DNA of 64,000 bases from Candidatus Goldiibacteriota bacterium HGW-Goldbacteria-1. Its GTDB lineage: Bacteria; Oederibacteriota; PGYV01. Below the pieces are notes generated by a model. That model was not told the DNA's origin, did not search any database, and saw nothing but the letters and a program-made list of their open reading frames with translations. Shown one piece after another: positions 2,575-63,743 of the stretch (the stretch's first letter is position 1; each line of letters begins with the position of its first letter). The stretch is from positions 7,220-71,219 of the forward strand of contig PGYV01000009.1 in assembly GCA_002839855.1 (NCBI GenBank), in the 5' to 3' direction. Position numbers and translations under genes: made by a program.

Positions 2575-3339
2575 TTATAAGTTAATAACCACATCAGCCG
2601 GTATTCCGGGCTTTAACATGCCTTCATCATTTTTGACGGTTATTTCAACGGCAAATACCTGTTTTACCCTTTCATCTTTTGTCTGGACATTTTTTGGCGT
2701 AAATTCCGCGTCCTGTGATATACGGGAAACACTTCCCTTAAACACTTTATCCTTATACGCGTCTATTTTTACAGAAGCCGTACTGCCCAGTTTTACCCTG
2801 CTCATATCAATAAGCGGGATGTAAATTGTAACCTTCGCGGTATTCATATCACCCAGAGTGAAAACCGGAGTGTTTGGAGATACAAGTTCGCCCTCTTCCA
2901 CATGTACTTCCATTATTAAACCATCCCACGGCGCCTTAACCTGCGCTTCTTTTAACATTTCATCCGCTGTAATGTAAGCTGACCTTGCCTGGTTATACTG
3001 CGCTTCCGATGCTTCAACCTGCTGCTTTGAAATTGAAGCGGAAGAATACAGCTCTTTAGCCCTGTCATAGGCGGCTTTTGCGGTATTATAGGAAGAATAC
3101 GCCCCCTGCTGCTGCGCCTGTACTATTACACTTTCAAGGACGGCAACAGTTTCACCGGCTTTTACGGTTTCCCCCGCATCCTTTAATTTTTTTATCACCC
3201 TTGCTGAAATTTTAGGCGCCACATCCACCTCTTTTATTTCAACAGTCCCGGAACCTGATATGGCCGTATTTTGTTTTGAACAGCCCGCAATTGCAAATAT
3301 GGAAAGTACAACAATTAGAAGCGCAGTATTTTTTTTCAT
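2575..3339 (-). CDS. HlyD-family / efflux periplasmic adaptor lipoprotein
   Basis: Signal peptide with lipobox (IAGCS). The protein has a coiled-coil-rich middle and a beta-barrel C-terminus. It sits between the TetR gene and the ABC ATPases. Confidence 0.75.
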   Translation of the reverse strand: MKKNTALLIVVLSIFAIAGCSKQNTAISGSGTVEIKEVDVAPKISARVIKKLKDAGETVKAGETVAVLESVIVQAQQQGAYSSYNTAKAAYDRAKELYSSASISKQQVEASEAQYNQARSAYITADEMLKEAQVKAPWDGLIMEVHVEEGELVSPNTPVFTLGDMNTAKVTIYIPLIDMSRVKLGSTASVKIDAYKDKVFKGSVSRISQDAEFTPKNVQTKDERVKQVFAVEITVKNDEGMLKPGIPADVVINL

Positions 3340-4068
3340 TTACTGTTTCCTCCTTTTATCTTCCGGCAGCATTGAGCTTTTAAAATTATCCATAATATAT
3401 TTTTTTCTGTCTTTTACGAATTTGCCTACTATTAACCTGTTAAATCCAATTTTGCCCGCAATATCTTCCGCCATAGGTTTAACCATATACACGGGTGCAA
3501 GCTGAACAATAAAACTGATTAAAAACTGATAGATATTTACTTTTTTCATTCTGCCTTCTTTCATCTCTTTACTAAGATACTTATACAGTTTTCCGTTTAC
3601 CGGATTAAAGGGTATTTTGCTGAAATTTTCAATTATTATCTTTGGCATATGTTTTGCACCGCTTATCACTTCATATACCATCAGTTTAAGATGGCTTCTG
3701 TATTCATCAAACATCCTTTCATAAACATTAAGTATTTCTTCCATAACTTTCTCTGTCTTCCCGCCATTTTCAAAATCAATCGCGTTTATCCTTTCTATCA
3801 ATATGCCAAAAACCGTCCTTAAAACCTGCTCATATATGTTTTCTTTTGATGAATAATAGTAATGAAGCAGCGCTTTATTCACTTTTGCCCTGTCTGCTAT
3901 CCTCTGCGTCCTTGCGCCGTAAAACCCGTATTCAACAAATTCATCAGACGCGGCTTTAAGTATTCTTTCTTTTGCCTTTAACTCTTTTTCCGGATCCTGT
4001 TTTTTTGACACTTTTAACCTCCGTATTCTTTCCGGCGAAAATAAAGTAAAAATTCCACTCCGGAACAA
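3340..4068 (-). CDS. TetR/AcrR family transcriptional regulator
   Basis: The N-terminal HTH (ARTQRIADRAKVNKALLHYYYSSKENIY) is typical of TetR. It is the first gene of the efflux operon. The true start may be internal. Confidence 0.8.
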   Translation of the reverse strand: MFRSGIFTLFSPERIRRLKVSKKQDPEKELKAKERILKAASDEFVEYGFYGARTQRIADRAKVNKALLHYYYSSKENIYEQVLRTVFGILIERINAIDFENGGKTEKVMEEILNVYERMFDEYRSHLKLMVYEVISGAKHMPKIIIENFSKIPFNPVNGKLYKYLSKEMKEGRMKKVNIYQFLISFIVQLAPVYMVKPMAEDIAGKIGFNRLIVGKFVKDRKKYIMDNFKSSMLPEDKRRKQ

Positions 4069-4092
4069 AAATTTTTATTTCAGCAGATTTTT

Positions 4093-5268
4093 TCATAGGA
4101 AATCAAAGTCCATATATAAAGGTTTAAGCAAAGGGAATGCCGCCTTTAATATTTTACTGTTACTTCCGGCCTTATATTTTATTCCAAGCACCATTTTCAT
4201 AAATATGCCTTCGTTAACTTGCGCTATTATTTTTTGATTGTAGTAAAACGTTATCTTTCCCCGCGGGCCTTTTTCTGTCCTTTTCATATCAAATGTACCG
4301 TTTATCCCGGCTTTTTTAAACCGCTTTAATATGAGAGGAACAATTACTTTTTTTAATCCTTCAAAATTGCCGATTCTGTACATTCTGATATATTTGGGAG
4401 TGATATATAAATCAATCTCTTTTTTTACAGGTTTTCTGGAACCTTCTATTTCTATCCCTTTGCCATTGTCATAATATATTTTATTTAAACCTTTTTGTTT
4501 TACATATTCAAATGCCTTTGCCGCAAGTGCTTTTGCGGCTTCTTCATGCCCCGGTAAATAACACAGCTCGGATATTTTTAGCGTATTTTTTTCAATATGA
4601 TTTACAGGGCCCATTAAAAGATAACCGCATGCTTTTTTATTTTTATATGCTATATAAGCCGGAGATATCCCGACTCCTTCCGACAATCCTTCTTTGTGAA
4701 TGTATTTACACCCCAGTACCCATGTATTAAGCGGCCTTACCACCGGGCCTGTTTTATCCGCGCAGAATTTTTCATGTATTTGTGCCATTGTTCTGATATT
4801 ATTTTTTTTCAACGGATCCGCTTTTTTTACAGCGTACCCGTATTGTATTTTTAGTTTGTCATCCAAATCCATAACTTTAAACGGAAACATAACCGGTGAA
4901 AACCCAAACTGCTTATAATAGGAGGTTTTGTAAGGATTAAGGTATGTAAGCGGATACCCTTCTTTTTTAATAAATTCCAGTGCGTCTCGTGTTATTACGG
5001 CAGCGTACCCTTTTCCCCTTTCATCCGGCGCGGTTGCCACTCCGGCTATACCTGCCGCTTTTACCTTTATACCGTCTATATATATTTCCCTTGGCAGAAC
5101 GCACGCCATGCTGACAAGTTTTTTACCTTCATATAACAACCTTATGTTTTTATATGAGAACTGTTCTTCTTTCATTATGGATGTATTAAGAAAAGATGAA
5201 TTAAAGACTTCAGCGCTTAATTTTACCGCGTCTTTGATGTTGATTTGATTTGCCTGTTTTATTTCCAT
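4093..5268 (-). CDS. GNAT family N-acetyltransferase, Eis-like (GNAT + SCP2-like C-terminal domain)
   Basis: It has an acetyl-CoA binding motif (GIAGVATAPDERGKGYAAV). Its ~390 aa length and architecture resemble Eis-type acetyltransferases. Confidence 0.55.
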   Translation of the reverse strand: MEIKQANQINIKDAVKLSAEVFNSSFLNTSIMKEEQFSYKNIRLLYEGKKLVSMACVLPREIYIDGIKVKAAGIAGVATAPDERGKGYAAVITRDALEFIKKEGYPLTYLNPYKTSYYKQFGFSPVMFPFKVMDLDDKLKIQYGYAVKKADPLKKNNIRTMAQIHEKFCADKTGPVVRPLNTWVLGCKYIHKEGLSEGVGISPAYIAYKNKKACGYLLMGPVNHIEKNTLKISELCYLPGHEEAAKALAAKAFEYVKQKGLNKIYYDNGKGIEIEGSRKPVKKEIDLYITPKYIRMYRIGNFEGLKKVIVPLILKRFKKAGINGTFDMKRTEKGPRGKITFYYNQKIIAQVNEGIFMKMVLGIKYKAGSNSKILKAAFPLLKPLYMDFDFL

Positions 5269-5666: not shown

Positions 5667-6221
5667 TCAGCGATTCTCTTTTTCCCCAAAAACCTGCGCT
5701 TCAAAGACATATATTTCGGTTTTAGGGTCAAGATACGCGTCCTTTGACAATCCGGCTTTTCCTTCACAAAGGTGTTCCATAAATTCTTTTTTACTCCACC
5801 CGGTTTCATCAGCCACCTGAGGAAGAAATACGCCTGCCGCAAAACCTTTTTTAACTATTACGCCGTGCCTGCCAAGTTCAATTTCATCAATACCGGACAC
5901 CCTTCGCTTGGGTGACAGTATGGATACTTCCACATCAATATCTTTAAGCTCCTCTTCATTTACAGGTTCAAACCTTGGATCCTGTGTTGCAGACTCTATT
6001 GCCATTTCTTCAACTGTTTTATGTATTGGTTCATTGCTTTCTATTGTTCCAATACAGCCCCTAAGCTGCCCATTATTATGAATAGTGACAAAAGCGCCGC
6101 CGGTCTGATTAAACTCCGGGTCAGTGGAATTAAACCGCGGAATAATACTTTTTGTTATATATTGCTCTATCGTATTTCTGGCAAGTTTTAAGATTTCATC
6201 CTGCTGCTGTTTATTCAGCAT
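5667..6221 (-). CDS. AMMECR1 domain protein
   Basis: The conserved LRGCIG motif and overall AMMECR1 pattern are present (GAFVTIHNNGQLRGCIGTIE...). Confidence 0.8.
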   Translation of the reverse strand: MLNKQQQDEILKLARNTIEQYITKSIIPRFNSTDPEFNQTGGAFVTIHNNGQLRGCIGTIESNEPIHKTVEEMAIESATQDPRFEPVNEEELKDIDVEVSILSPKRRVSGIDEIELGRHGVIVKKGFAAGVFLPQVADETGWSKKEFMEHLCEGKAGLSKDAYLDPKTEIYVFEAQVFGEKENR

Positions 6222-6954
6222 TTTTTACCTTCTTTTCTTCAGGTATAAATACCTTTATATTTTTATTTTTAATAAGTTTTTTAAATTCTTCCCCGTCATT
6301 TTTATTTCCCACAATAAGCCCGTAATGCATTGGAACCGCGATTTCAGGCTTTATCAAATCCACAGCTTCTGCCGCTTCTTTTGGTGTCATTACATAAGTG
6401 CCGGATACAGGCACAAGCGCCACTGATATTTTACCCAAACTCTTCATTTCGTCTATCAGGTCAGTGTCGCCCATATGGTATGTTCTTGTTCCTTCATAAT
6501 TCAGGATATACCCCACTTTGCCGTCTTTTTTTGGATGAAATGGTTTTTTATTATTATATGCCGCAACCGCTTCCACTTTTATATTGCCAAGCATGATAGA
6601 ATCCCCGGGTTTTACTATTTTAAGATTATAGCCTTTAAGTTTATCAGCGCATTTTTCCGTACATACTACTACTGTGTTTTTTGACGTGATTTTTTTTATA
6701 TCCTCAGGCGAACAGTGGTCATGATGTTCGTGGGTAATCAGGATATAATCTGCCGGTATCCCGGCATCAAGTTTAAAAGGGTCTATATAAATGATTTTTT
6801 TATCAAGTTTCAGCATAAATGAGTCGTGGTGAAACCATGTCATATTTTTTATTATCTGCTCTGCCGTCATATTGTTTTCCATGGCAAATCCCCCCGATAC
6901 TGAAATTAAAATGAATACCTGCAGCAGAAACAGTTTAATAATGCCTTTACCCAT
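6211..6954 (-). CDS. MBL-fold metallo-hydrolase, secreted
   Basis: An N-terminal signal peptide is present. The metallo-beta-lactamase fold motif is present as HEHHDHCS (the HxHxDH pattern). Confidence 0.75.
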   Translation of the reverse strand: MGKGIIKLFLLQVFILISVSGGFAMENNMTAEQIIKNMTWFHHDSFMLKLDKKIIYIDPFKLDAGIPADYILITHEHHDHCSPEDIKKITSKNTVVVCTEKCADKLKGYNLKIVKPGDSIMLGNIKVEAVAAYNNKKPFHPKKDGKVGYILNYEGTRTYHMGDTDLIDEMKSLGKISVALVPVSGTYVMTPKEAAEAVDLIKPEIAVPMHYGLIVGNKNDGEEFKKLIKNKNIKVFIPEEKKVKNAE

Positions 6955-7043: not shown

Positions 7044-7120
7044 GGGCCCTTAGCTCAGTTGGTTAGAGCAGTAGACTCATAATCTATTGGTCGTAGGTTC
7101 AAGTCCTACAGGGCCCACCA
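7044..7120 (+). tRNA. tRNA-Met (anticodon CAT; elongator type, but tRNA-Ile2/lysidine cannot be excluded)
   Basis: A cloverleaf can be read. The acceptor stem is GGGCCCT/AGGGCCC. The D-arm is AGCTCAGTTGGTTAGAGC. The anticodon loop is CTCATAA. The T-arm is GGTTCAAGTCC. The 3' CCA is encoded. Confidence 0.9.
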
Positions 7121-7166: not shown

Positions 7167-7215
7167 GGCCCTGCAGGGCTTGAATGGTTTTGCCAAAGTA
7201 CTTTAAGTTCTTAAT

Positions 7216-7240
7216 GTAGAGACGCAATATATTGCGTCTC
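7216..7240. repeat. 22-bp perfect palindrome GAGACGCAATATATTGCGTCTC (copy 1), followed by a T-run
   Basis: Identical copies occur at 7338-7361 and 17975-17999. It forms a 9-bp stem with a TATA loop. Here it is followed by GTTTTTAT on the plus strand. Confidence 0.8.
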
Positions 7241-7337
7241 GTTTTTATACCCACCTTTAGCTTACACGGTTTATATGTAATATAGGAGTGTTTACAATTA
7301 GATACATTTTATCTCACAGATTTAAAAACAAAACCTT

Positions 7338-7361
7338 AGACGCAATATATTGCGTCTCTAC
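7338..7361. repeat. 22-bp palindrome family copy 2 (inverted relative to copy 1), immediately 3' of the CapA-like gene
   Basis: AGACGCAATATATTGCGTCTCTAC abuts the TAA stop (7363-7365). On the minus strand it is followed by a T-rich tract, so it is a likely terminator. Confidence 0.8.
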
Positions 7362-7362
7362 T

Positions 7363-8361
7363 TTATAAACCAAGTTCTTTTAAATCAATACCTTCAAACT
7401 TTAACGCGTCAATAAACGCCTTTATCTCTGCGGAGTCCTGCATTATTTCAGGCCTATAATTTACAAGTTTTACCGGTATAAACTTAACTTTTTTTATTAC
7501 TTTATTTTCTATTTCAAGATTTATTATGCCGCTTTTGTGTGTGTCTTCACGTTCAAGGTCAAATACAAAATTCCCAAGGCCATAAAATATATATTTACCG
7601 TTGTATTTTTCAACGTCCTGAAACAGGTGCGTATGAGAACCAAAAACAAAATCAACTCCGGAATCAATTAATTTTCTTGCGAATTTTTTCTGATAATTTT
7701 TTACCTCTTCATATTCCCTCCCCCAGTGAAGATAAACAATTAAAATATCACTCTCTTTTCTGTGGGCCTTTATGTCTTTTTGTATTTCATCCATAAGCGC
7801 GGGTATTGTACCGTATCTGTCTTTGCCCGCGAAAAAGGTTTCATGGGATACGTTTGAATAACATAAAAATGAGACCTTTGCTCCATTGACATACTTCACG
7901 CACGGAACATTTGGTTTCCAAAGGTTATTTTTTCTTATTCCGCAGTGGTCAATACCCGTTTTTTCAAGCGCCTGCACAGTCTGTGTAAGCCCATACTGCC
8001 CGTAATCCAAAATATGATTATTAGCAAGTGATACTATATTGATTCCAGCGTCTGCCAGTGCCCGGGCATCCCTTTCAAAACCATAAAGATGAACAGACTT
8101 ATCCTTTCCCTGCTTTTTTAAATTTAAAAGGCTTTCTTTATTTACTAAAGGGGCTTCCAGGTTCCCAAACACAACTGATGATTTTTTAAACAGTTCTTTA
8201 ACTTTTTCATATGGGTACCCAATTCCATTAACATCTATCAAAGGGGAAAGTTTTCTTCCCGGCATTATATCGCCCACAAGCGTTATAATATTTGAACCAT
8301 TTATGTTCTGCGTAATTACGCCTTTATCCTGCTGTAACTGCGCCTTATCTTCCGGCTTCAC
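7363..8361 (-). CDS. CapA/PgsA-family metallophosphatase-like protein (poly-gamma-glutamate synthesis-type), probably a lipoprotein with a longer N-terminus
   Basis: The LANNHILDYG motif typical of the CapA family is present. The in-frame upstream translation (8362-8421) reads KIASAAALLGLIGLSAGCAT, which is a lipobox. No canonical start codon precedes it. Confidence 0.7.
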   Translation of the reverse strand: MKPEDKAQLQQDKGVITQNINGSNIITLVGDIMPGRKLSPLIDVNGIGYPYEKVKELFKKSSVVFGNLEAPLVNKESLLNLKKQGKDKSVHLYGFERDARALADAGINIVSLANNHILDYGQYGLTQTVQALEKTGIDHCGIRKNNLWKPNVPCVKYVNGAKVSFLCYSNVSHETFFAGKDRYGTIPALMDEIQKDIKAHRKESDILIVYLHWGREYEEVKNYQKKFARKLIDSGVDFVFGSHTHLFQDVEKYNGKYIFYGLGNFVFDLEREDTHKSGIINLEIENKVIKKVKFIPVKLVNYRPEIMQDSAEIKAFIDALKFEGIDLKELGL

Positions 8362-10568: not shown

Positions 10569-10655
10569 TGTATTACCTCCTTACATTTGACGTCATTTTA
10601 GCAGAAAGGGTTGCATAATGCATATACAAAACTTATATATTCAGTTTTATACCCT

Positions 10656-10701
10656 ATAAAAACAAAATGGCCGGCGGGGCCTCACAGGGCCCGCGCCGGC
10701 C
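10656..10701 (-). terminator. GC-rich hairpin terminator downstream of the 4-helix-bundle gene
   Basis: GGCCGGCGGGGCC-TCACAG-GGCCCGCGCCGGCC. On the minus strand it is followed by a T-rich run. Confidence 0.65.
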
Positions 10702-10776
10702 GGAAAACAAAGGGCGTCAATAAACGGTTTATGGTTTTTGCCTTAAACCGTGATATATGCTAATGGGGTAACATTA

Positions 10777-17923: not shown

Positions 17924-17950
17924 CCCGCGGGCTGAAGACCCGCGTCTACC
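17924..17950. repeat. GGTAG-hairpin repeat unit (reverse orientation): CCCGCGGGCTGAAGACCCGCGTCTACC
   Basis: It matches the units at 52236, 52338, 53254 and 63744. Confidence 0.75.
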
Positions 17951-17974
17951 ACTGCAAATTCAACTAATCAAAGC

Positions 17975-17999
17975 GAGACGCAATATATTGCGTCTCTAC
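17975..17999. repeat. 22-bp palindrome family copy 3 (GAGACGCAATATATTGCGTCTC+TAC)
   Basis: Identical to the copies at 7219-7240 and 7338-7361. It lies 3' of the gene at 18041-18418. Confidence 0.8.
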
Positions 18000-18040
18000 T
18001 ATAAAGAACGAATAATAACCGCGGACGGAGTTTATGGCAA

Positions 18041-45652: not shown

Positions 45653-45784
45653 TATGCTCCGTTTAAAAAATAGCGCTTTAACGAATTAAGCATTTAAGCT
45701 ATAGCGAGAACACTGCTGCTTTTCATATTTTTCTTTGCTTATCTTAATTGCTTAACTGCTTATATGTTTAATACGCTATTTTTT

Positions 45785-50734: not shown

Positions 50735-51343
50735 TCATGGTTTTGAAACGTAACTGTTTCCCTTTATGTAAAATCTCCACTTTAAATTCAGCCCGGTCTT
50801 TATGCCTATTCTGCTTTTGGCTGCAACGCTGAACTTTTCTTTTGGCCCGTCGCATACATATATTTCATTTTTCATCAAATCCGCTTTATTCTGTTCTTTT
50901 CCTATTGCCATTGCCTGCGTAAACTTTGCCGGCCCGTTGGTAAGATTTATGCCTTCGGCATTTCTGTTCTTCTTCATTTCTTTTATTCCGCTTACAGGTT
51001 CTACCGCCCTGATAAGGACAGCTGCCGCAATACCTTCAGGCTCCGTGACTATGTTAAAAAGGTGGTGATTTCCGTAACAGAAGTAAACGTAAGCCCGCCC
51101 CGGTGGACCAAACATAACTTCGTTTCTTGGCGTTCTTTTTTTAAACGCGTGGCTTCCGGGATCTTTTTTCCCCCTGTACGCTTCGGTTTCAACTATTTTC
51201 GCGGCCATAATAACCGCTCCCTGTCTGCGCACCAGATATTTTCCAAGAAGCGCTTTGGCTGCGCTTACAGAATTCTGAAGATAAAAACCGGCTTTAATTT
51301 TTCTTAACTTCAATTTATTTAAGAAACTCTTTGACAATAACAC
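50735..51343 (-). CDS. mpg: DNA-3-methyladenine glycosylase (Mpg/AAG family)
   Basis: The ...IVETEAYRG...DPGSHAF... motif of the AAG family is present. Confidence 0.8.
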   Translation of the reverse strand: MLLSKSFLNKLKLRKIKAGFYLQNSVSAAKALLGKYLVRRQGAVIMAAKIVETEAYRGKKDPGSHAFKKRTPRNEVMFGPPGRAYVYFCYGNHHLFNIVTEPEGIAAAVLIRAVEPVSGIKEMKKNRNAEGINLTNGPAKFTQAMAIGKEQNKADLMKNEIYVCDGPKEKFSVAAKSRIGIKTGLNLKWRFYIKGNSYVSKP

Positions 51344-51758
51344 CTATTTTAGTGCCGTCTGCCCTGCCTTTTACCTTTGGCATTACGGCGCCCATTACTT
51401 TTCCCATTTCCTTGGCTGACTGCGCGTTTACCGCGGTAATTGTCTCTTTGACAATTTCCCTTAATTCATCATCGGTAAGCTGCTTGGGAAGGTATCCCAT
51501 TATGATTTCAAGTTCCTGTTTTTCTTTTTCCGCCAGTTCCGGCCTGTTGCCTTTTGTGAAGCTTTCAATGGATTCGTTGTGGGCTTTGGATAAAGAAAAG
51601 ATGACGGAGACGATATCGTCATCCGTCATCTCTTTTTTTAACTTTATCTCTGCGTTCATGACAGCGGTCTTTATCTGCCTTATTACGGCAGTTTTAGTTT
51701 CGTCTTTCGCTTTCATGGACGCTTTTAAATCTTCTGACAGTTTTTCGTTTAAGCTCAT
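51315..51758 (-). CDS. yqeY: GatB/YqeY domain protein
   Basis: The typical MSLNEKLSEDLKASMKAKDE start and the helical YqeY pattern are present. The track ORF has a 15-codon upstream extension that overlaps rpsU. Confidence 0.7.
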   Translation of the reverse strand: MSLNEKLSEDLKASMKAKDETKTAVIRQIKTAVMNAEIKLKKEMTDDDIVSVIFSLSKAHNESIESFTKGNRPELAEKEKQELEIIMGYLPKQLTDDELREIVKETITAVNAQSAKEMGKVMGAVMPKVKGRADGTKIGVIVKEFLK

Positions 51759-51949
51759 TTCTTTATGGGCCTTTTTTTCTTGCGTTTTTTGCTGGCAGCC
51801 CACATTTTCTGTTTCTTTCTTACTGACGGCGGTTCGTAATACTCCCTTTTCTTCATTTCCTGAAGAATACCGGCGTCCTGCACTTTTTTCTTAAAGCGCT
51901 TCATTGCGTCGTCTAAGCTTTCATTTTCCTTTATTGAAATCTCAGCCAT
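51755..51949 (-). CDS. rpsU: 30S ribosomal protein S21
   Basis: The sequence MAEISIKENESLDDAMKRFKKKVQDAGILQEMKKREYYEPPS... with a basic tail matches S21. The true start is the ATG at 51949. Confidence 0.9.
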   Translation of the reverse strand: MAEISIKENESLDDAMKRFKKKVQDAGILQEMKKREYYEPPSVRKKQKMWAASKKRKKKRPIKK

Positions 51950-52052
51950 GTAAAATAATCCCTCCAAACTGTTCTGGAATAAAATTTTTCCCTGTATTTA
52001 CAGCAATTAACATAAATACAAAGTCAAAAAAAAGCAAAAATTGCTTTGAACA

Positions 52053-52081
52053 ATTATACAGATTATGCGACGGAAAGTCAA
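52053..52081 (-). promoter_or_regulatory. near-consensus sigma70 promoter of the rpsU-dnaG-rpoD operon
   Basis: The minus strand reads TTGACT-17nt-TATAAT. A hairpin AAGCAA-TTT-TTGCTT plus T7 follows directly in the leader. Confidence 0.7.
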
Positions 52082-52235
52082 TAAATAGATAAAGCCCATA
52101 CATAAGCCCATAGATAATAAGCCATATCCCATAAATAATGATTAAATGCCTATTTTGGGATTATTTAATAGATAAATAATGCCTTTTCATCTAACTACAC
52201 GGCATGTATTGCGCCTTATTCTTATGTTCAGCCTT

Positions 52236-52264
52236 GGTAGACGCGGGTCTTCAGCCCGCGGTAG
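52236..52264. repeat. GGTAG-hairpin repeat unit (A-type, forward): GGTAGACGCGGGTCTTCAGCCCGCGGTAG
   Basis: 6-bp stem CGCGGG/CCCGCG with a 7-nt loop. It is a member of the dispersed family. Confidence 0.75.
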
Positions 52265-52285
52265 TTTGTTTTGGATTTAAGTACT

Positions 52286-52316
52286 GGTAGGCGCGCCTTT
52301 TAAGGCGCGGCAGTTG
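52286..52316. repeat. GGTAG-hairpin repeat unit (B-type, forward): GGTAGGCGCGCCTTTTAAGGCGCGGCAGTTG
   Basis: It has the same flanks as the A-type, with a different self-complementary stem. Confidence 0.75.
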
Positions 52317-52337
52317 CTTTAAAAATTATTAAAAAAA

Positions 52338-52408
52338 CGCGCGGGCTAAAGACCCGCGTCTACCAAACCACTCTCACGAGCTGCTTCTTTTACCCGATTT
52401 TGCTTATC
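52338..52408. repeat. reverse-orientation hairpin unit plus conserved ~45-bp tail (TACCAAACCACTCTC...GCTGCTTCTTTTACCCGATTTTGCTTATC); copy 1 of the direct repeat flanking higBA
   Basis: About 85% identical to 53254-53331. Confidence 0.75.
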
Positions 52409-52453
52409 AAATTATGAAACTGTATTTGTTTGTATTATAAAAACCGGCGTATT

Positions 52454-52753
52454 TTATATCAATTTTAGAACAAGGCGTTTATTAACGCCATGGGCTATTT
52501 TTGAGAGCGTGGCAACTTCCGCGTTTTCCCCATTGTCAAAAACCCGCGATACCACCTGTGGTTTTAAACCCGCCTTTTTTGCCAGAGCGTATTTGGTCAT
52601 ATGTTTTTTATCAAGTTCTTTTTCAACGCTTGATAAAAAATCACACAAAGCCAATTCATCTTTAAATTCGCTCTGCGAAACATTAATATTATCAAAAAAA
52701 TTCTTAACATTTTCTTTCTTTGCGGTTGTAACCTGTTTTTTTGTAAGTTTCAT
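52454..52753 (-). CDS. higA: HigA-like antitoxin (XRE-family HTH)
   Basis: The C-terminal HTH is MTKYALAKKAGLKPQVVSRVFDNGENAEVATLSKIA. It lies immediately downstream of the toxin gene, which is the HigBA order. Confidence 0.7.
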   Translation of the reverse strand: MKLTKKQVTTAKKENVKNFFDNINVSQSEFKDELALCDFLSSVEKELDKKHMTKYALAKKAGLKPQVVSRVFDNGENAEVATLSKIAHGVNKRLVLKLI

Positions 52754-52754
52754 A

Positions 52755-53093
52755 TCATTTTCTCCCTTCTCTTGCTATTCTTATTTTTTCTGCCGTTTCA
52801 TACTCTCTTTGGTTTGTCTTTTTGTTTCCGCGTTCATAAAAAGTATGTATTATCTGCGCAGACTTGCCTTTCCAATAAAACAACATCCTGAATTCAATAT
52901 TGTGAAAATGCGGCCTTAATTCAAATAAGCCCTTGTATCCTTCCACCTTGTCCATATATTGCGAAGGAAGATTAAAACCGCGCAATTCAAGCAGCTCAAT
53001 ATATACTTTAATCTTCTTTTTAAGCCCTTCTTCTTTTATTTCCTGTACCGCTTCTAAAACCGCTTCGGTCATGTCATAAGAAAACAGATTCAT
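52755..53093 (-). CDS. higB: HigB/Gp49-family (RelE/ParE superfamily) toxin
   Basis: Gp49-like motifs are present (YIELLELRGFNLPSQY...GLFELRPHF). An RBS AAGGAG lies 7 nt upstream of the ATG at 53093. The track ORF starts at an upstream TTG. Confidence 0.7.
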   Translation of the reverse strand: MNLFSYDMTEAVLEAVQEIKEEGLKKKIKVYIELLELRGFNLPSQYMDKVEGYKGLFELRPHFHNIEFRMLFYWKGKSAQIIHTFYERGNKKTNQREYETAEKIRIAREGRK

Positions 53094-53110
53094 GTTAACT
53101 CCTTTCAAAG

Positions 53111-53130
53111 TATACAATTTAAATTGTATA
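53111..53130. promoter_or_regulatory. perfect 20-bp palindrome TATACAATTTAAATTGTATA just upstream of the higB RBS (HigA operator candidate)
   Basis: 9-bp arms separated by 2 bp, in the classic TA autoregulatory position. Confidence 0.65.
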
Positions 53131-53202
53131 GTGTCAAGTTATTATGATTTAAAGCGTGATTTTTTACCAAACCCTCCCACAGGGCATTGCATAAATCTAA
53201 AA

Positions 53203-53230
53203 CCACGCGCCCTAAAAGGACGCGGCTACC
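53203..53230. repeat. GGTAG-hairpin repeat unit (B-like, reverse; stem with one G.T position)
   Basis: CCACGCGCCCTAAAAGGACGCGGCTACC. Confidence 0.6.
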
Positions 53231-53253
53231 AAATCTTACATTTAAATTCACTT

Positions 53254-53331
53254 CCGTGGGCTGAAGACCCGCGTGTACCAAACCACTCTCTTTAACTGCC
53301 GAGCTGATTCTTTTACCCGCTTCTGCTTATC
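53254..53331. repeat. reverse-orientation hairpin unit plus conserved tail; copy 2 of the direct repeat flanking higBA
   Basis: CCGTGGGCTGAAGACCCGCGTGTACCAAACCACTCTC...GAGCTGATTCTTTTACCCGCTTCTGCTTATC. Confidence 0.75.
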
Positions 53332-53421
53332 TGCTTATTGCTTAACCCTCTATTCTTTTCATTCCCCGGCACCGACATCAGAACTCCATTATCTTTATAT
53401 AACAACATCATAAATAATTAA

Positions 53422-54408
53422 TTAAAATAAAAATTTAATGCTATTATTCTCTCTGTTCTTCATCATTTTCCTTCCTATATCCATCCATACAGATGTATCC
53501 TCTTTATTAAAAAATACAAAATCATTTATAATAGAAGTTATTAATTTGTTTAACCATGAAACAAGCTGTTTTTTTCTTAAACGAAACATTCTTCCAGTTC
53601 TTAAAAAATCATAATTCTTTTTATATTCCTGGTATACATTCCAACTAAGCCATTTATTATTATCACTTGAACCAACCGGAAATTTTCCAAGCTTCGATTT
53701 GATTATTATCATACCCAGCCTCTTACTTTCTTCGTCAAACTCAATTTTTAATATTCTCGATTGATTGTTGGTAAAATATATCTCAAAATTAAAGTATTTT
53801 TTTTGCTTATATAAGTAACTGTAAGAATTATTTTTTAAAAACACATTCATTTCTTTTAAACAGATACTGACAAATTCATTAAAACCAACAAAAGGATTTT
53901 TCTTGTTGTTAATTTGCAGGCGTATCATCAAACGCTTAGATATATTGACACCATCAAAAGAACCTTCTTCAATAGCATTCTTCAATATTTTTCTATTTTC
54001 AATAAATTTAATTATATTTGTATTTGTATTTTTTATACATTCTTTAATTAAAATAAAATTATTATTATCGTATTTTAAAATTAACTCATTAATTAATTCC
54101 CTGTATTCGAAATATTTACCAACATCCTCCCCTATTTGAAACCAAATATCAAATTTTTTAACGCCGATAGCAGTTCTCTTAATGTCTTTTAAACAATTAA
54201 TTCCTATCTTTATACTTGCAGAACCATCTTTTTTTGATACATTTAGAAAAAAAACAATCACACCAGAGGGTAAATATTTAATAAACTTATTTCGATTTTG
54301 CTTATAACCCAATTTTTCAAAAATTAAGTATAATTTTTTAATAAACAGATTATTATCCATAGTGTTTTTTATTCTCCCGTTCAGATACAAAATATCTCCC
54401 TTAAACAA
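53422..54408 (-). CDS. hypothetical protein in a sharply AT-rich segment (candidate horizontally acquired defence/Abi-like gene)
   Basis: A 328-aa ORF with Lys/Asn/Ile-rich composition. The GC content is far below the flanking regions. No recognisable domain was found by eye. Confidence 0.5.
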   Translation of the reverse strand: MFKGDILYLNGRIKNTMDNNLFIKKLYLIFEKLGYKQNRNKFIKYLPSGVIVFFLNVSKKDGSASIKIGINCLKDIKRTAIGVKKFDIWFQIGEDVGKYFEYRELINELILKYDNNNFILIKECIKNTNTNIIKFIENRKILKNAIEEGSFDGVNISKRLMIRLQINNKKNPFVGFNEFVSICLKEMNVFLKNNSYSYLYKQKKYFNFEIYFTNNQSRILKIEFDEESKRLGMIIIKSKLGKFPVGSSDNNKWLSWNVYQEYKKNYDFLRTGRMFRLRKKQLVSWLNKLITSIINDFVFFNKEDTSVWMDIGRKMMKNRENNSIKFLF

Positions 54409-54461
54409 ACGTTAAATTTCCACTACATTTATATATTAAATCAAATAACAAAACCGCAAGG

Positions 54462-55835
54462 TTAATATATAAACGACGCTTTTTCTACCTTTTCTATATG
54501 CGGGTAGGAGGAGTATGTGGCCATGACCCTTATATTGGTGTTATAGGTCATTCCCGGCAGAAATAACGGCACATATTCCAGCGGTATTTCCCATGAAATT
54601 GAATTTTCGCCCTGTTCCAGTTGTATGTTTTTGCATACAGTGACTTTCTTGTCCTTATCCAGTTCTATTTCCATTGTCACAAAACTCTTTTCCGTCAGGA
54701 AAAAATCAAACTGCATGGCGTTCACCGGCGGCACCGCCTGTATCCTGCCCACGCGGAAATTTGTCACATCGCTTCCTATCCAGAAATACTGCGCCGATTC
54801 TTTATCTGATACTATTACCTGCCCATAATGCCTGTATATGGAAATTCCGGTTGGTTTTTCAAATTTATAGTCATCCGTGCCGTAGGAGCCGTAAGAGGTA
54901 ATATACGCAAGGTCAGGCGAGAATTTATGTATCTGGGAATTAAAATAATCCACAAGGTAAATATTGCCGTAATAATCATAATCAAGGGTGGTTAAAACCA
55001 CTTTTCTTCCCAGCTTTTCGTCCACCCTTACGCCGCGGACAATATTCCCGTTTAAATCAAATTTCTGCAGCCTGTTAAAATTTCCGTCTATCACATACAT
55101 ATAATTCTGTTTGTATCCCAGATATCGCTGTCCGTCGTCAATAACGCAGATGCCGCGCGGGTTGGAAATGCCTTTTGTCTGGTCAATTGAATATAAATAT
55201 CCGCCGGACTTGGAAAAAACCTGTATTCTGTTATTGCCGTTATCCGACACATACAGTTTTCCGCCGGAATCAAGCTTTACATATAACGGCCTGTTGAATT
55301 CCCCGTCGCCGCTTCCCCCTTTTCCTATATTTCTTATAAACCTAAGTTTTCCATCTTTATAAAACAGCCTTACTATCCTGTTATTGCCGGTATCGGCCAC
55401 ATAAACGTCGCCGTATTCATTACACGAAATGCCCGTAGGCCTGTTGAATTCGCCGTCGCCCGTGCCCACGTTTCCATACACGGCAAGACCGCTCATTGAT
55501 ACATTATAAATTATTTCCCCGCGCCCTGAATTAACACCAAATGCCGTAAGCTGCCAGTCGTCCTTGCCGGGGTTTATTCCGCCGTAATCTGAAAGCATCT
55601 TTGTGGTCGCCACATCCTGCGGGTCTGAAAAATATGTTTTGTTGCCCAGAAAAACTTTAAGCCAGAAAGCCGTGCCGCGGTGCACCCCAAACGGGGTGTG
55701 CCAGAAACTTGGATAGACAAGCGTGGACGGCACATTTGTAAGGGTTACAAGTTCATCTTCTTTTTTACTCTCCGCGAAAGAAAAAGATGAAAGTAATAAT
55801 ATGAATGCTGTAAGGAGCACAAACTTTTTTTTCAT
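54462..55835 (-). CDS. secreted NHL-repeat beta-propeller protein
   Basis: A signal peptide is present. Repeated NHL motifs are present (GDGEFNRPTGISCNEYGDVYVADTGNNRIVRL, GDGEFNRPLYVKLDSGGKLYVSDNGNNRIQVF). Confidence 0.7.
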   Translation of the reverse strand: MKKKFVLLTAFILLLSSFSFAESKKEDELVTLTNVPSTLVYPSFWHTPFGVHRGTAFWLKVFLGNKTYFSDPQDVATTKMLSDYGGINPGKDDWQLTAFGVNSGRGEIIYNVSMSGLAVYGNVGTGDGEFNRPTGISCNEYGDVYVADTGNNRIVRLFYKDGKLRFIRNIGKGGSGDGEFNRPLYVKLDSGGKLYVSDNGNNRIQVFSKSGGYLYSIDQTKGISNPRGICVIDDGQRYLGYKQNYMYVIDGNFNRLQKFDLNGNIVRGVRVDEKLGRKVVLTTLDYDYYGNIYLVDYFNSQIHKFSPDLAYITSYGSYGTDDYKFEKPTGISIYRHYGQVIVSDKESAQYFWIGSDVTNFRVGRIQAVPPVNAMQFDFFLTEKSFVTMEIELDKDKKVTVCKNIQLEQGENSISWEIPLEYVPLFLPGMTYNTNIRVMATYSSYPHIEKVEKASFIY

Positions 55836-58549: not shown

Positions 58550-58657
58550 GTAGGGACAGCGCTCCCGCGCTGTCCGGTTCTTGTTCTTTTGTAAATTCAA
58601 CTACGCGGACAGCGTGAATGCCATGGCAACGCCCGCATTCAAGCAGCTGTCCCTACA
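58550..58657. repeat. GC-rich structured element between hemW and proA (nested inverted repeats built on GGACAGCG)
   Basis: Perfect 9-bp hairpin GGACAGCGC-TCCC-GCGCTGTCC. The outer pairing is GTAGGGACAGC ... GCTGTCCCTAC. A third copy CGGACAGCG is present. Confidence 0.6.
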
Positions 58658-60588: not shown

Positions 60589-60664
60589 GTTTTTTCCTCC
60601 ATTAAATTAAAAGATGGTTTAAATTATATGCCAAAAGAGGAAAAAAGCAAGAACTTTAAGGGCG

Positions 60665-60968
60665 GAAGCTGGGCGGCTTGGCAGCTGGGAAGCTGGGAAG
60701 TAACAACACGAGGGACAGATGCACGGAGGGACGAAAGGAATGGCTGTAAAGGCGCGGCTGGGCGGCTAAGCAGCTGGGCAAAGGCGAAAGGCCGGAAGAT
60801 CGGTTTGGATCTGGTAGGCGCACCTTTTAAGGTGCGGCAGTTGATTTAGGTTTAGGTGTAGATGTTTACCAAAATGAAATGAAAAAAACCAACTGCCCCG
60901 GGCTAAAGCCCGCGCCTACCAATACCAAACCATGTTACCCAGTTACCCAGCTGCCTAGCTGCCTAGCC
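60665..60968. mobile_element. MITE-like composite repeat (imperfect ~35-bp terminal inverted repeats made of CAGCTG-containing units, enclosing two GGTAG-hairpin units)
   Basis: The left inverted repeat is GAAGCTGGGCGGCTTGGCAGCTGGGAAGCTGGGAAGTAAC. The right inverted repeat is GTTACCCAGTTACCCAGCTGCCTAGCTGCCTAGCC. The internal units are at 60814-60848 (B-type) and 60888-60920 (reverse). No ORF with a credible start is present. Confidence 0.5.
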
Positions 60969-63650: not shown

Positions 63651-63743
63651 TTTTGGACGCTTGGATGGTTAGAGGCTTAGAGGCTTGGCTGGAGCGAGCC
63701 TGCGAAGTTAAAATCCCCGGGCTTACGCGGATTATTTGGCTTT

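Follow-up and report, generated by a model that had tools for sequence, protein, structure and literature searches.

We examined a 64,000-nt stretch of Candidatus Goldiibacteriota bacterium HGW-Goldbacteria-1 (contig PGYV01000009.1; this whole stretch is called the window in the following), in which a higBA toxin-antitoxin (TA) operon lies, together with two direct repeats and an AT-rich orphan gene, between a gene for an NHL-repeat protein and the ribosomal protein gene rpsU. The gap between the NHL-gene stop codon (54462) and the rpsU -35 box (52081) measures 2.3 kb, and the minus strand carries every gene (NHL gene 55835-54462, orphan 54408-53422, higB 53093-52755, higA 52753-52454, rpsU 51949-51755). 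By synteny, rpsU is the first gene of a conserved rpsU-yqeY-...-dnaG-rpoD block. The bacterium's own genome was covered over the 64-kb window; for its relatives ~2.1 Mb (2.16 Mb) of fetched sequence was compared, none of it a complete genome, and contigs L001-L004 come from the same strain as the window. Judged from these comparisons, the gap is a strain-variable, core-gene-flanked hotspot of defence type. Its features are listed in gene direction, where REP stands for repetitive extragenic palindrome and F1 to F5 for the REP families described below:

54462..55835, minus strand: NHL-repeat protein gene (Pfam NHL, E 5.5e-18), the conserved left flank
53422..54408, minus strand: AT-rich orphan gene, 328 aa from TTG 54408, likelier 322 aa from TTG 54390
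53322..53344, minus strand: octamer tandem array, TAAGCAGA x3, leading into the copy B tail (Tandem Repeats Finder, period 8, 3.0 copies)
53254..53331, minus strand: repeat copy B, with a ~50-nt tail (53281-53331) and a degenerate F1 REP hairpin (53255-53280)
53206..53229, minus strand: F2 REP hairpin, GTAGCCGCGTCCTTTTAGGGCGCG then UGGUUUUAGA, from the terminator scan; kept upstream of higBA in L088
53109..53137, minus strand: higBA promoter TTGACA-17-TATACT, -35 at 53137-53132 and -10 at 53114-53109, 11/12 consensus match
52755..53093, minus strand: higB toxin gene, 112 aa, Gp49/HigB family (PF05973 Gp49, E 2e-11, 44.2 bits vs cutoff 23.9)
52454..52753, minus strand: higA antitoxin gene, 99 aa, HTH_3/XRE family (PF01381 HTH_3, 24.1 bits vs cutoff 23)
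52325..52408 (repeat 52338-52408), minus strand: repeat copy A, with a 43-nt tail (52366-52408), F1 hairpin GTAGACGCGGGTCTTTAGCCCGCG (52340-52363) and T-run (52325-52339)
52237..52309, plus strand: two REP hairpins in opposite orientation to copy A, F1 at 52237-52260 and F3 at 52287-52309; kept in L217 and L219
52085..52165, minus strand: short 'TATGGGCT'-type repeats with a 12-nt tandem at 52092-52117, the right edge of the variable region
52053..52081, minus strand: rpsU promoter TTGACT-17-TATAAT, start of the conserved right flank, kept in all relatives
51755..51949, minus strand: rpsU, ribosomal protein S21 (PF01165, E 6e-20)

An earlier, sequence-only reading of this DNA had proposed a toxin-first HigBA pair. 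The domain matches to Gp49 and HTH_3 and the gene order, with 1 nt separating the higB stop codon from the higA start, identify the two genes as a type II TA operon of this kind. An AAGGAG ribosome-binding site lies ahead of the higB start codon. PADLOC and NCBIfam added only weak matches for HigB and HigA, and the match of HigB to the solved HigB structure 6af3 was weak (E 0.003). The codon differences from the copy in relative L088 were 15 synonymous and 3 non-synonymous for higB and 12 synonymous and 3 non-synonymous for higA, which indicates purifying selection on both genes, and the pairing of higB with higA was kept in every homologue context examined. Phage or plasmid relatives of HigB were found neither among IMG/VR contigs nor among PLSDB plasmids, and a phage or plasmid origin of the toxin was dropped on this ground.

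A perfect 20-bp palindrome, TATACAATTTAAATTGTATA, is indeed present at 53111-53130 as first described, and it lies inside the higBA promoter, in the -35/-10 spacer. The identical 20-bp palindrome recurs at this promoter position in L091, an unrelated genome, where it precedes a HigB of only 72% identity beside lepA; in L230 a symmetric variant, TATACATTTATAAATGTATA, has the same promoter position upstream of a 68%-identical HigB homologue. Conservation with both homologues supports a putative HigA binding site; the palindrome is a predicted HigA operator through which higBA would be autoregulated. The L230 homologue and its HigA (586-2138) are located directly downstream of an ArdC-N/antirestriction-type gene, a context suggesting that relatives of the TA pair travel on conjugative elements.

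Precise alignment of the two same-orientation repeats flanking higBA, described earlier as ~75 bp long and ~85% identical, gave two blocks without gaps, 45 nt at 84% and 39 nt at 85% identity, with an 8-nt indel between them, in good agreement with that description. The 25-nt core pattern matched only copies A and B in the window and gave 0 matches in 100 shuffles. In gene direction each copy consists of a tail of ~45 nt and, after it, a hairpin of 24-26 nt, (T)GGTAG-ACGCGGGTCTTYAGCCCGCG; in copy B the head of the hairpin is GTAC in place of GTAG, and the stem contains one mismatch. Copy A, which closely follows higA, is scored together with its T-run as an intrinsic terminator and is likely the higBA terminator, while the F2 hairpin at 53206-53229 is likely the terminator of the orphan gene. 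RNA folding of A and B gave only a short 7-bp local hairpin (z-scores -1.2 and -0.6), and because the folding revealed nothing beyond it, the tail does not appear to be an obvious structured RNA or attC site. An Rfam scan of 51000-55500 detected no credible RNA family, and the sole gathering-level match in the whole window was the tRNA-Met at 7044 (7044-7120), 45 kb from the higBA islet; accordingly, the repeat does not correspond to a known RNA, and nothing in the scan points to a tRNA-targeted islet.

The tail has AAGCAGATAAGCAGAAGCGG and CAGCTCGGCAG motifs in common with 8-nt arrays upstream of other REPs, and the 8-nt indel between A and B equals one octamer unit. Its central part, CGGGTAAAAGAA...GAGAGTGG, was present only in the two copies and, for A, in L223, where the copy A tail is also 3' of higA. 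The junction of tail and hairpin, GAGAGTGGTTTGGTANACGCGGG, gave 0 matches in the metagenome collection, which held only relatives of at most 87% identity. The position that the tail has in the window, directly 5' of the F1 hairpin, is filled in relatives by a dispersed element of ~60-90 nt with a longer hairpin, GGTGTCAGAGCC...GGCTCTGA (L088 1181-1272; L217 2577-2648, 4449-4511 and 4522-4617; L219 4476-4560; weaker in L223 near 3255); the window has no copy of this element.

The hairpin part of the repeats is widespread. The F1 hairpin alone has 7 copies in the window, where 0.02 were expected; five F1-type hairpins lie inside a 1.1-kb stretch and the other two, at 17926 and 63743, directly follow the 3' ends of unrelated genes and are oriented as terminators would be. 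An exact-match hairpin scan of metagenome contigs returned at least 120 stretches with at least 133 distinct contexts. When up to two mismatches were allowed, 146 distinct F1 copies were collected, of which 131 were outside frames of at least 120 codons, although such frames take up 83% of the bases sampled; 90 of the 146 directly followed the 3' end of a co-directional open reading frame (ORF). A detector for perfect stems of at least 7 bp was left out of the counts because it misses the F1 family (6-bp stem plus a G-U pair).

Five palindromes could be distinguished, ACGCGGGTCTTYAGCCCGCG (F1), CCGCGTCCCTTTAGGGCGCG (F2), GCGCGCCTTTTAAGGCGCG (F3), AGACGCAATATATTGCGTCTC (F4) and GGACAGCGCTCCCGCGCTGTCC (F5), and about 12 REPs of these five families occur within the 64-kb window. 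A GTAG head was found ahead of F1 in 135 of 146 copies, F2 in 19/22, F3 in 13/17, F4 in 25/~31 and F5 in 13/15. On these features Candidatus Goldbacteria are credited here with at least five families of GTAG-tagged REP elements. The sequence-only reading had considered that the repeats might be ubiquitous intergenic filler; this applies to the hairpin, ubiquitous outside reading frames, and does not extend to the tail, which was found at this locus only.

REPs also occur in pairs and clusters. The F1 hairpins at 52237-52260(+) and 52340-52363(-) form an inverted pair, 96% complementary and 79 nt apart, and the cluster 52237-52363 contains three REPs of alternating orientation, an arrangement like that of bacterial interspersed mosaic elements (BIMEs) or REP doublets forming hairpins (REPINs). 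The metagenome scan likewise contained many paired hairpin matches inside single loci among the matches listed. Elsewhere in the window, an inverted F4 pair (7211-7248 / 7338-7370, 98 nt apart) lies just downstream of the tRNA-Met gene, and further GTAG REPs are an F4 copy at 17967-18004 next to the F1 hairpin at 17926, an F5 copy at 58554-58575 and an F3-like one at 60819-60836. Short-read assemblies of the same sample break at REPs: L002 ends at 6241 (REP 6213-6237) and L225 starts at window position 52260 (REP 1-27). Breaks on either side of the 52260-52340 cluster are the expected behaviour of a high-copy repeat.

Upstream of many REPs there are octamer arrays (GGAGGGTC, GGCAGCTC, GGATGCTT, GGGACGGA, AAGCAKAAGCG). 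Intergenic arrays of period 8 were seen in the window at 60664-60700, 60754-60779, 60934-60967, 63669-63686, 45743-45762 and 53322-53344; tandem 8-nt units including GGAAGCTG, GCGGCTGG and TTAGAGGC also occur in many metagenome loci (L125, L128, L145, L216), often directly upstream of REPs. We know of no described counterpart of such arrays in this phylum. In relative L005, C/T-rich octamer-like motifs, CCTCCGAC and CCGTCCCT, fill the space before the rpsU promoter (10600-10725); they correspond to the GGAGGGTC/GGGACGGA arrays read on the opposite strand.

To compare the gap between strains, NHL|rpsU junctions were gathered via three anchors: the NHL protein, the exact rpsU protein, and homologues of HigB and the orphan. 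Two clades were recognized. The flanks of clade A (L217, L223, L219) are 94-98% identical to the window, and those of clade B (L005/L227, L085, L222, L226, L220) are 85-88% identical to the window and 94-100% among themselves. Ten different gap states were found, and the content differed in almost every genome:

Window, clade A: orphan and higBA
L217, clade A, 98% flank: seven other genes, among them SLFN_AlbA_2 and one for a partial protein that PADLOC matched to CARF/Csa3-like and SIR2-PNTD-like models
L223, clade A: partial type I restriction enzyme, eroded higB, intact higA, AbiEii/AbiEi
L219, clade A: gene for a 299-aa secreted protein, with 44 nt left of the higB 3' end
L005, clade B: 80%-identical orphan only
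L085/L088, clade B, NHL gene 99% identical to that of L005: two other ORFs, higBA and a DUF6880/PDC-S62-like gene
L222, clade B: 298-aa gene and AbiE
L226, clade B: 300-aa ORF of the 299-aa family
L220, clade B: unrelated 187-aa ORF
L006, distant relative: empty, NHL to rpsU 320 bp

The edges of the variable region are sharp. Homology with L219, L220 and L222 stops exactly at the NHL stop codon (54462), and homology with relatives restarts 3-20 nt upstream of the rpsU -35 box (52084-52103), that with clade B at 52084 or 52103, beside the TATGGGCT-type repeats. The empty site that had been suggested as a check, with the NHL gene and rpsU directly adjacent, is present in the distant L006, and the closer L005 has the orphan without higBA. 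The view of the locus as an accessory or defence islet between housekeeping genes also found support, and the name 'defence islet' is apt because in other strains this position is taken by AbiE, by a type I restriction enzyme or by a Schlafen/AlbA_2 cluster. In L217 the partial gene at 3-1007 (SIR2-PNTD is associated with prokaryotic Argonautes) stands beside the Schlafen/AlbA_2 protein gene at 1227-1865, and together the two may constitute a defence system.

Between the window and L085-L090 of clade B, the higBA module (53274-52435) has 94.5-95.2% identity, against only 84% in the adjacent housekeeping DNA. In the AbiE module, L222 of clade B (3486-4786) and L223 of clade A (~3327-4627) have 100% identity over ~1.3 kb, while their flanks are 88-89% identical, which argues for very recent inter-clade recombination; the tract of 100% identity ends inside the abiEi 3' end, not in the flank. 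Both modules thus seem to have been exchanged between the clades. The borders of the higBA module vary: L088 shares 53274-52435, L223 shares 53149-53109 and 52775-52327, and L217 is homologous from 52321 on.

Erosion of higBA was seen in two clade-A relatives. In L223 (2650-3171) the promoter, the palindrome and an intact higA are kept and higB is present in short fragments, and in L219 (4448-4487) only 44 nt of the higB 3' end are left. Erosion therefore appears to start with the toxin gene, in line with the acquisition-then-erosion reported for chromosomal TA systems (PMC13617665).

The orphan gene accounts for the AT-rich 328-aa frame reported beside higBA, and its composition is as described: 24% G+C vs 40% in the whole window and 43% in the NHL gene, the DNA around it having 22-26% and that on both sides 41-49%. 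The TTG start at 54390 is preceded by an AGGGAG ribosome-binding site. Its product has a 100%-identical database entry from HGW-Goldbacteria-1 itself. The protein matched nothing in Pfam, PADLOC or NCBIfam, and no homologues beyond its own two clusters were found in 5.8e9 proteins (word-indexed search) or 1.84e9 representatives (full HMMER); AlphaFold2 on the 3-sequence alignment reached a mean pLDDT (predicted local distance difference test) of 32. The L005 copy is 80% identical, with the frame intact over 313 codons, zero indels and differences by codon position of 40/32/63. Because the frame is kept and third positions show a modest excess, the orphan is taken to be a genuine, lineage-restricted and fast-evolving gene. 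In the NHL-proximal slot it alternates with the unrelated 299-aa family, each alternative being present in both clades. This family (298-300 aa, 29-30% G+C, signal-peptide-like N-terminus) was observed in L217 (2858-3757), L219 (3483-4382), L222 (2325-3221) and L226 (729-1631), and the orphan and this family resemble two long-lived 'alleles' of the slot.

The sequence-only reading had explained the position of higBA by insertion of a cassette through recombination between the repeat copies. This part could not be upheld. The same module exists elsewhere without the tails, and the hairpin is ubiquitous at ordinary gene ends; the higBA genes of L085-L090, 94.5-95% identical to those of the window, have neither of the ~45-nt tails. 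L088 possesses the upstream hairpin only and no repeat after higA; homology there reaches ~20 nt beyond the stop codon of higA and ends ahead of copy A. L223 has the copy A tail and a decayed hairpin after higA, nothing resembling copy B upstream, and homology beginning at 53149. L005 carries 297 unrelated bp in place of any tail copy, and L217 and L219 have just a decayed hairpin, with another element ahead of it. The variable regions of L220, L222, L223, L226 and L227, which contain other cassettes, have no intact REP, and an empty site with a single repeat copy was found in no genome among the NHL|rpsU loci compared.

Altogether, the best explanation, to which we assign a probability of about 70%, is that of a hotspot occupied by two units that end in REP modules and turned over by inter-lineage recombination and deletion. 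According to this explanation the gap holds two independent transcription units, the orphan gene and the higBA operon. HigA, alone or with HigB, would repress its own promoter via the palindrome that spans the -35/-10 spacer; HigB would be neutralized by HigA and, when free, would act as a ribosome-dependent mRNase that arrests growth once the labile antitoxin is lost. The '75-bp repeats' would be the 3'-end modules of the two units, each a GTAG-tagged REP from a high-copy extragenic family that is spread across the genus, preceded by a ~45-nt tail, and most likely act as terminators or 3'-end stabilisers. As dispersed homologous sequences, REP hairpins may at times serve as recombination joints. 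Gene content would turn over by recombination between lineages and by deletion, and higBA would decay by loss of the toxin gene. The repeats are thus best understood as REP-type terminators with a locally duplicated tail, not as attachment sites of a discrete cassette; termination by REPs and the recombination mechanism, like toxin activity and autoregulation, are what we infer from sequence comparison. The comparison shows directly which genes are present, that the palindrome is conserved, that the hotspot varies, that modules are shared between the clades and that the REP family is genome-wide. Since the repeats are built on a genome-wide REP hairpin and are not attachment sites, the locus would be a fairly ordinary defence hotspot.

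Several observations weigh against this explanation. The tail of A is closest to that of B and vice versa (local alignment score 28 vs at most 22 for at least 140 other hairpin contexts), and a fuzzy tail search of the 2.16 Mb of fetched sequence found the tail only at the window locus and, for copy A, in L223. Because the tails are closest to each other and confined to the locus, the whole tail-plus-hairpin unit appears to have been duplicated locally; this may have come about through a tandem duplication that higBA subsequently split, through gene conversion involving the two adjacent terminators, or through Campbell-type insertion. The tail may also mark a genome-wide subfamily, the own genome being sampled over 64 kb. 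Two breakpoints fall in or next to the copies: module homology with L088 begins at 53274, inside the copy B hairpin, and the 98% homology of the same-species strain L217 begins at 52321, just beyond the T-run of copy A. These would fit repeat-mediated insertion as well; they are consistent with REPs as occasional recombination joints, and two breakpoints are no demonstration. Finally, no REP-associated tyrosine transposase (RAYT) was found, so that membership in a REP/RAYT system is incomplete. The phmmer search, a weak test in ~2.1 Mb of incomplete genomes, used E. coli RayT (NC_000913) and an IS200 TnpA sequence as queries, and a screen of REP-flanked ORFs in the fetched sequence gave no RAYT-like candidate.

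Campbell-type integration, in which a resident 75-bp tail-plus-hairpin recombines with a copy on incoming circular DNA and leaves direct repeats around higBA, would account for the direct orientation and the 84-85% identity of A and B, their mutual closeness and the confinement of the tail to this locus, as well as for the breakpoints at 53274 (L088) and 52321 (L217) and for copy A travelling with higA in L223. It is at odds with the module of L085-L090, which lacks a tail on either side and whose right border (52435) precedes copy A, with L223, where copy A is present and nothing like copy B is found upstream of the promoter, and with L005, where the orphan without higBA is accompanied by 297 unrelated bp and no tail copy. 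The divergence of 15% and the 8-nt indel make the identity low for a recent recombination product, and no circular or plasmid relative was found in IMG/VR or PLSDB. We therefore regard this route as unlikely.

A bolder version of the hotspot itself also appears doubtful to us, and slightly more so. Here the site would be compact and combinatorial, the AT-rich orphan, the 299-aa secreted family and the 131-, 170-, 187- and 228-aa ORFs would be new genes against phages or mobile genetic elements, the GTAG REPs and octamer arrays would serve as shuffling joints, and higBA would have been inserted by REP-to-REP recombination or RAYT-type single-strand transfer.

To our knowledge there is no precedent for REP units that carry cargo. 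Single-strand transfer of the stretch delimited by the directly oriented hairpins B and A, carried out by a RAYT in the manner of IS200/IS605 ends, could draw on the fact that GTAG hairpins are published RAYT substrates (PMC3733652, PMC2817692), on the position of both hairpins on the coding strand, and on the insertion point in L088 and L217 directly 3' of a homologous hairpin. With no Y1/RAYT homologue in the ~2.1 Mb fetched, no REP-flanked candidate ORF, a degenerate hairpin B (GTAC head, stem mismatch) and module borders that differ between genomes, we consider such a transfer very improbable.

Although direct repeats 3' of two co-oriented, apparently promoter-independent units recall an integron, and TA cassettes occur in chromosomal integrons, an integron-like array or the remnant of a tRNA-targeting island, with the repeats as attC/att sites, is hardly credible: at no locus do the 8-10 kb to the left and right contain an integrase, the sole window tRNA is at 7044, and only a short local hairpin is found, with no attC-type long imperfect hairpin and no R''/R' GTTRRRY cores. 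The integron/attC array was rejected for want of an integrase and an attC fold, and the island because the window's only tRNA is 45 kb off.

Under the preferred explanation, a two-unit hotspot occupant with REP 3'-end modules, each component resembles a described system. With HigBA (6af3/6af4 complex) the pair has in common the toxin-first order, the Gp49 and HTH_3 proteins, a palindrome in a sigma-70-type promoter and purifying selection, and toxin loss in some strains parallels chromosomal TA erosion (PMC13617665). It differs in that its HigB is only weakly similar to characterised HigB proteins (E 0.003 to 6af3) and in that the host belongs to an uncultivated phylum. The locus offers a clean natural example of cross-lineage TA acquisition followed by erosion that begins at the toxin gene.

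GTAG-tagged REPs are defined as short (20-40 bp) palindromes that carry an unpaired GTAG at one of their ends, are numerous and extragenic, mostly downstream of ORFs, and often form close pairs of opposite orientation; a cognate RAYT gene (Y1 transposase, PF01797) with REPs around it belongs to the system (PMC3733652; Nunvar et al. 2010, PMC2817692). A 2013 survey (Di Nocera et al., PMC3733652) recorded GTAG REPs predominantly in Gammaproteobacteria. The elements described here share the G+C-rich 20-26-nt palindromes, the unpaired GTAG head, the high copy number and the extragenic location mostly 3' of ORFs. Like GTAG REPs, BIMEs and REPINs elsewhere, they comprise several families per genome and close copies in opposite orientation with short motifs between them. 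They are distinguished by the lack of a RAYT in the sampled sequence, the 8-nt tandem arrays, the Goldbacteria host and the ~45-nt tail on two copies. Five GTAG REP families with 8-nt arrays in Candidatus Goldbacteria extend the known range of REPs and raise the question of RAYT presence.

Integron cassettes share with the locus direct repeats 3' of successive co-oriented units, one of them a TA pair, and HigBA integron cassettes with attC sites occur in Vibrio superintegrons; here, in contrast, integrase, attC architecture and conserved borders are missing, and the hairpin is found genome-wide at gene ends. The minimal mobile elements of Neisseria are cassettes between conserved genes that are exchanged by recombination in the flanks. 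Alternative cassettes at one site, the absence of mobility genes and exchange between lineages are common to both, whereas the 100% tract of AbiE ends inside the module and not in the flank.

Core-gene-flanked defence hotspots have been described as cDHS1/2 of P. aeruginosa (PMC10250203) and in E. coli (PMC10121019). A fixed site, varied immune and TA systems, many genes of unknown function and a sometimes empty state are found in the NHL|rpsU gap too, but it is very small (0.3-5 kb or more) and abuts the rpsU-dnaG-rpoD promoter, and it is represented by about ten metagenome-derived loci vs hundreds of isolates. A small core-flanked defence hotspot is thus documented in an uncultivated phylum, and as no function is known for half of the genes it holds, the site is a cheap place to look for candidate defence genes. 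HigBA, GTAG REPs and a core-flanked defence hotspot are, in sum, known kinds of system met in a new phylum.

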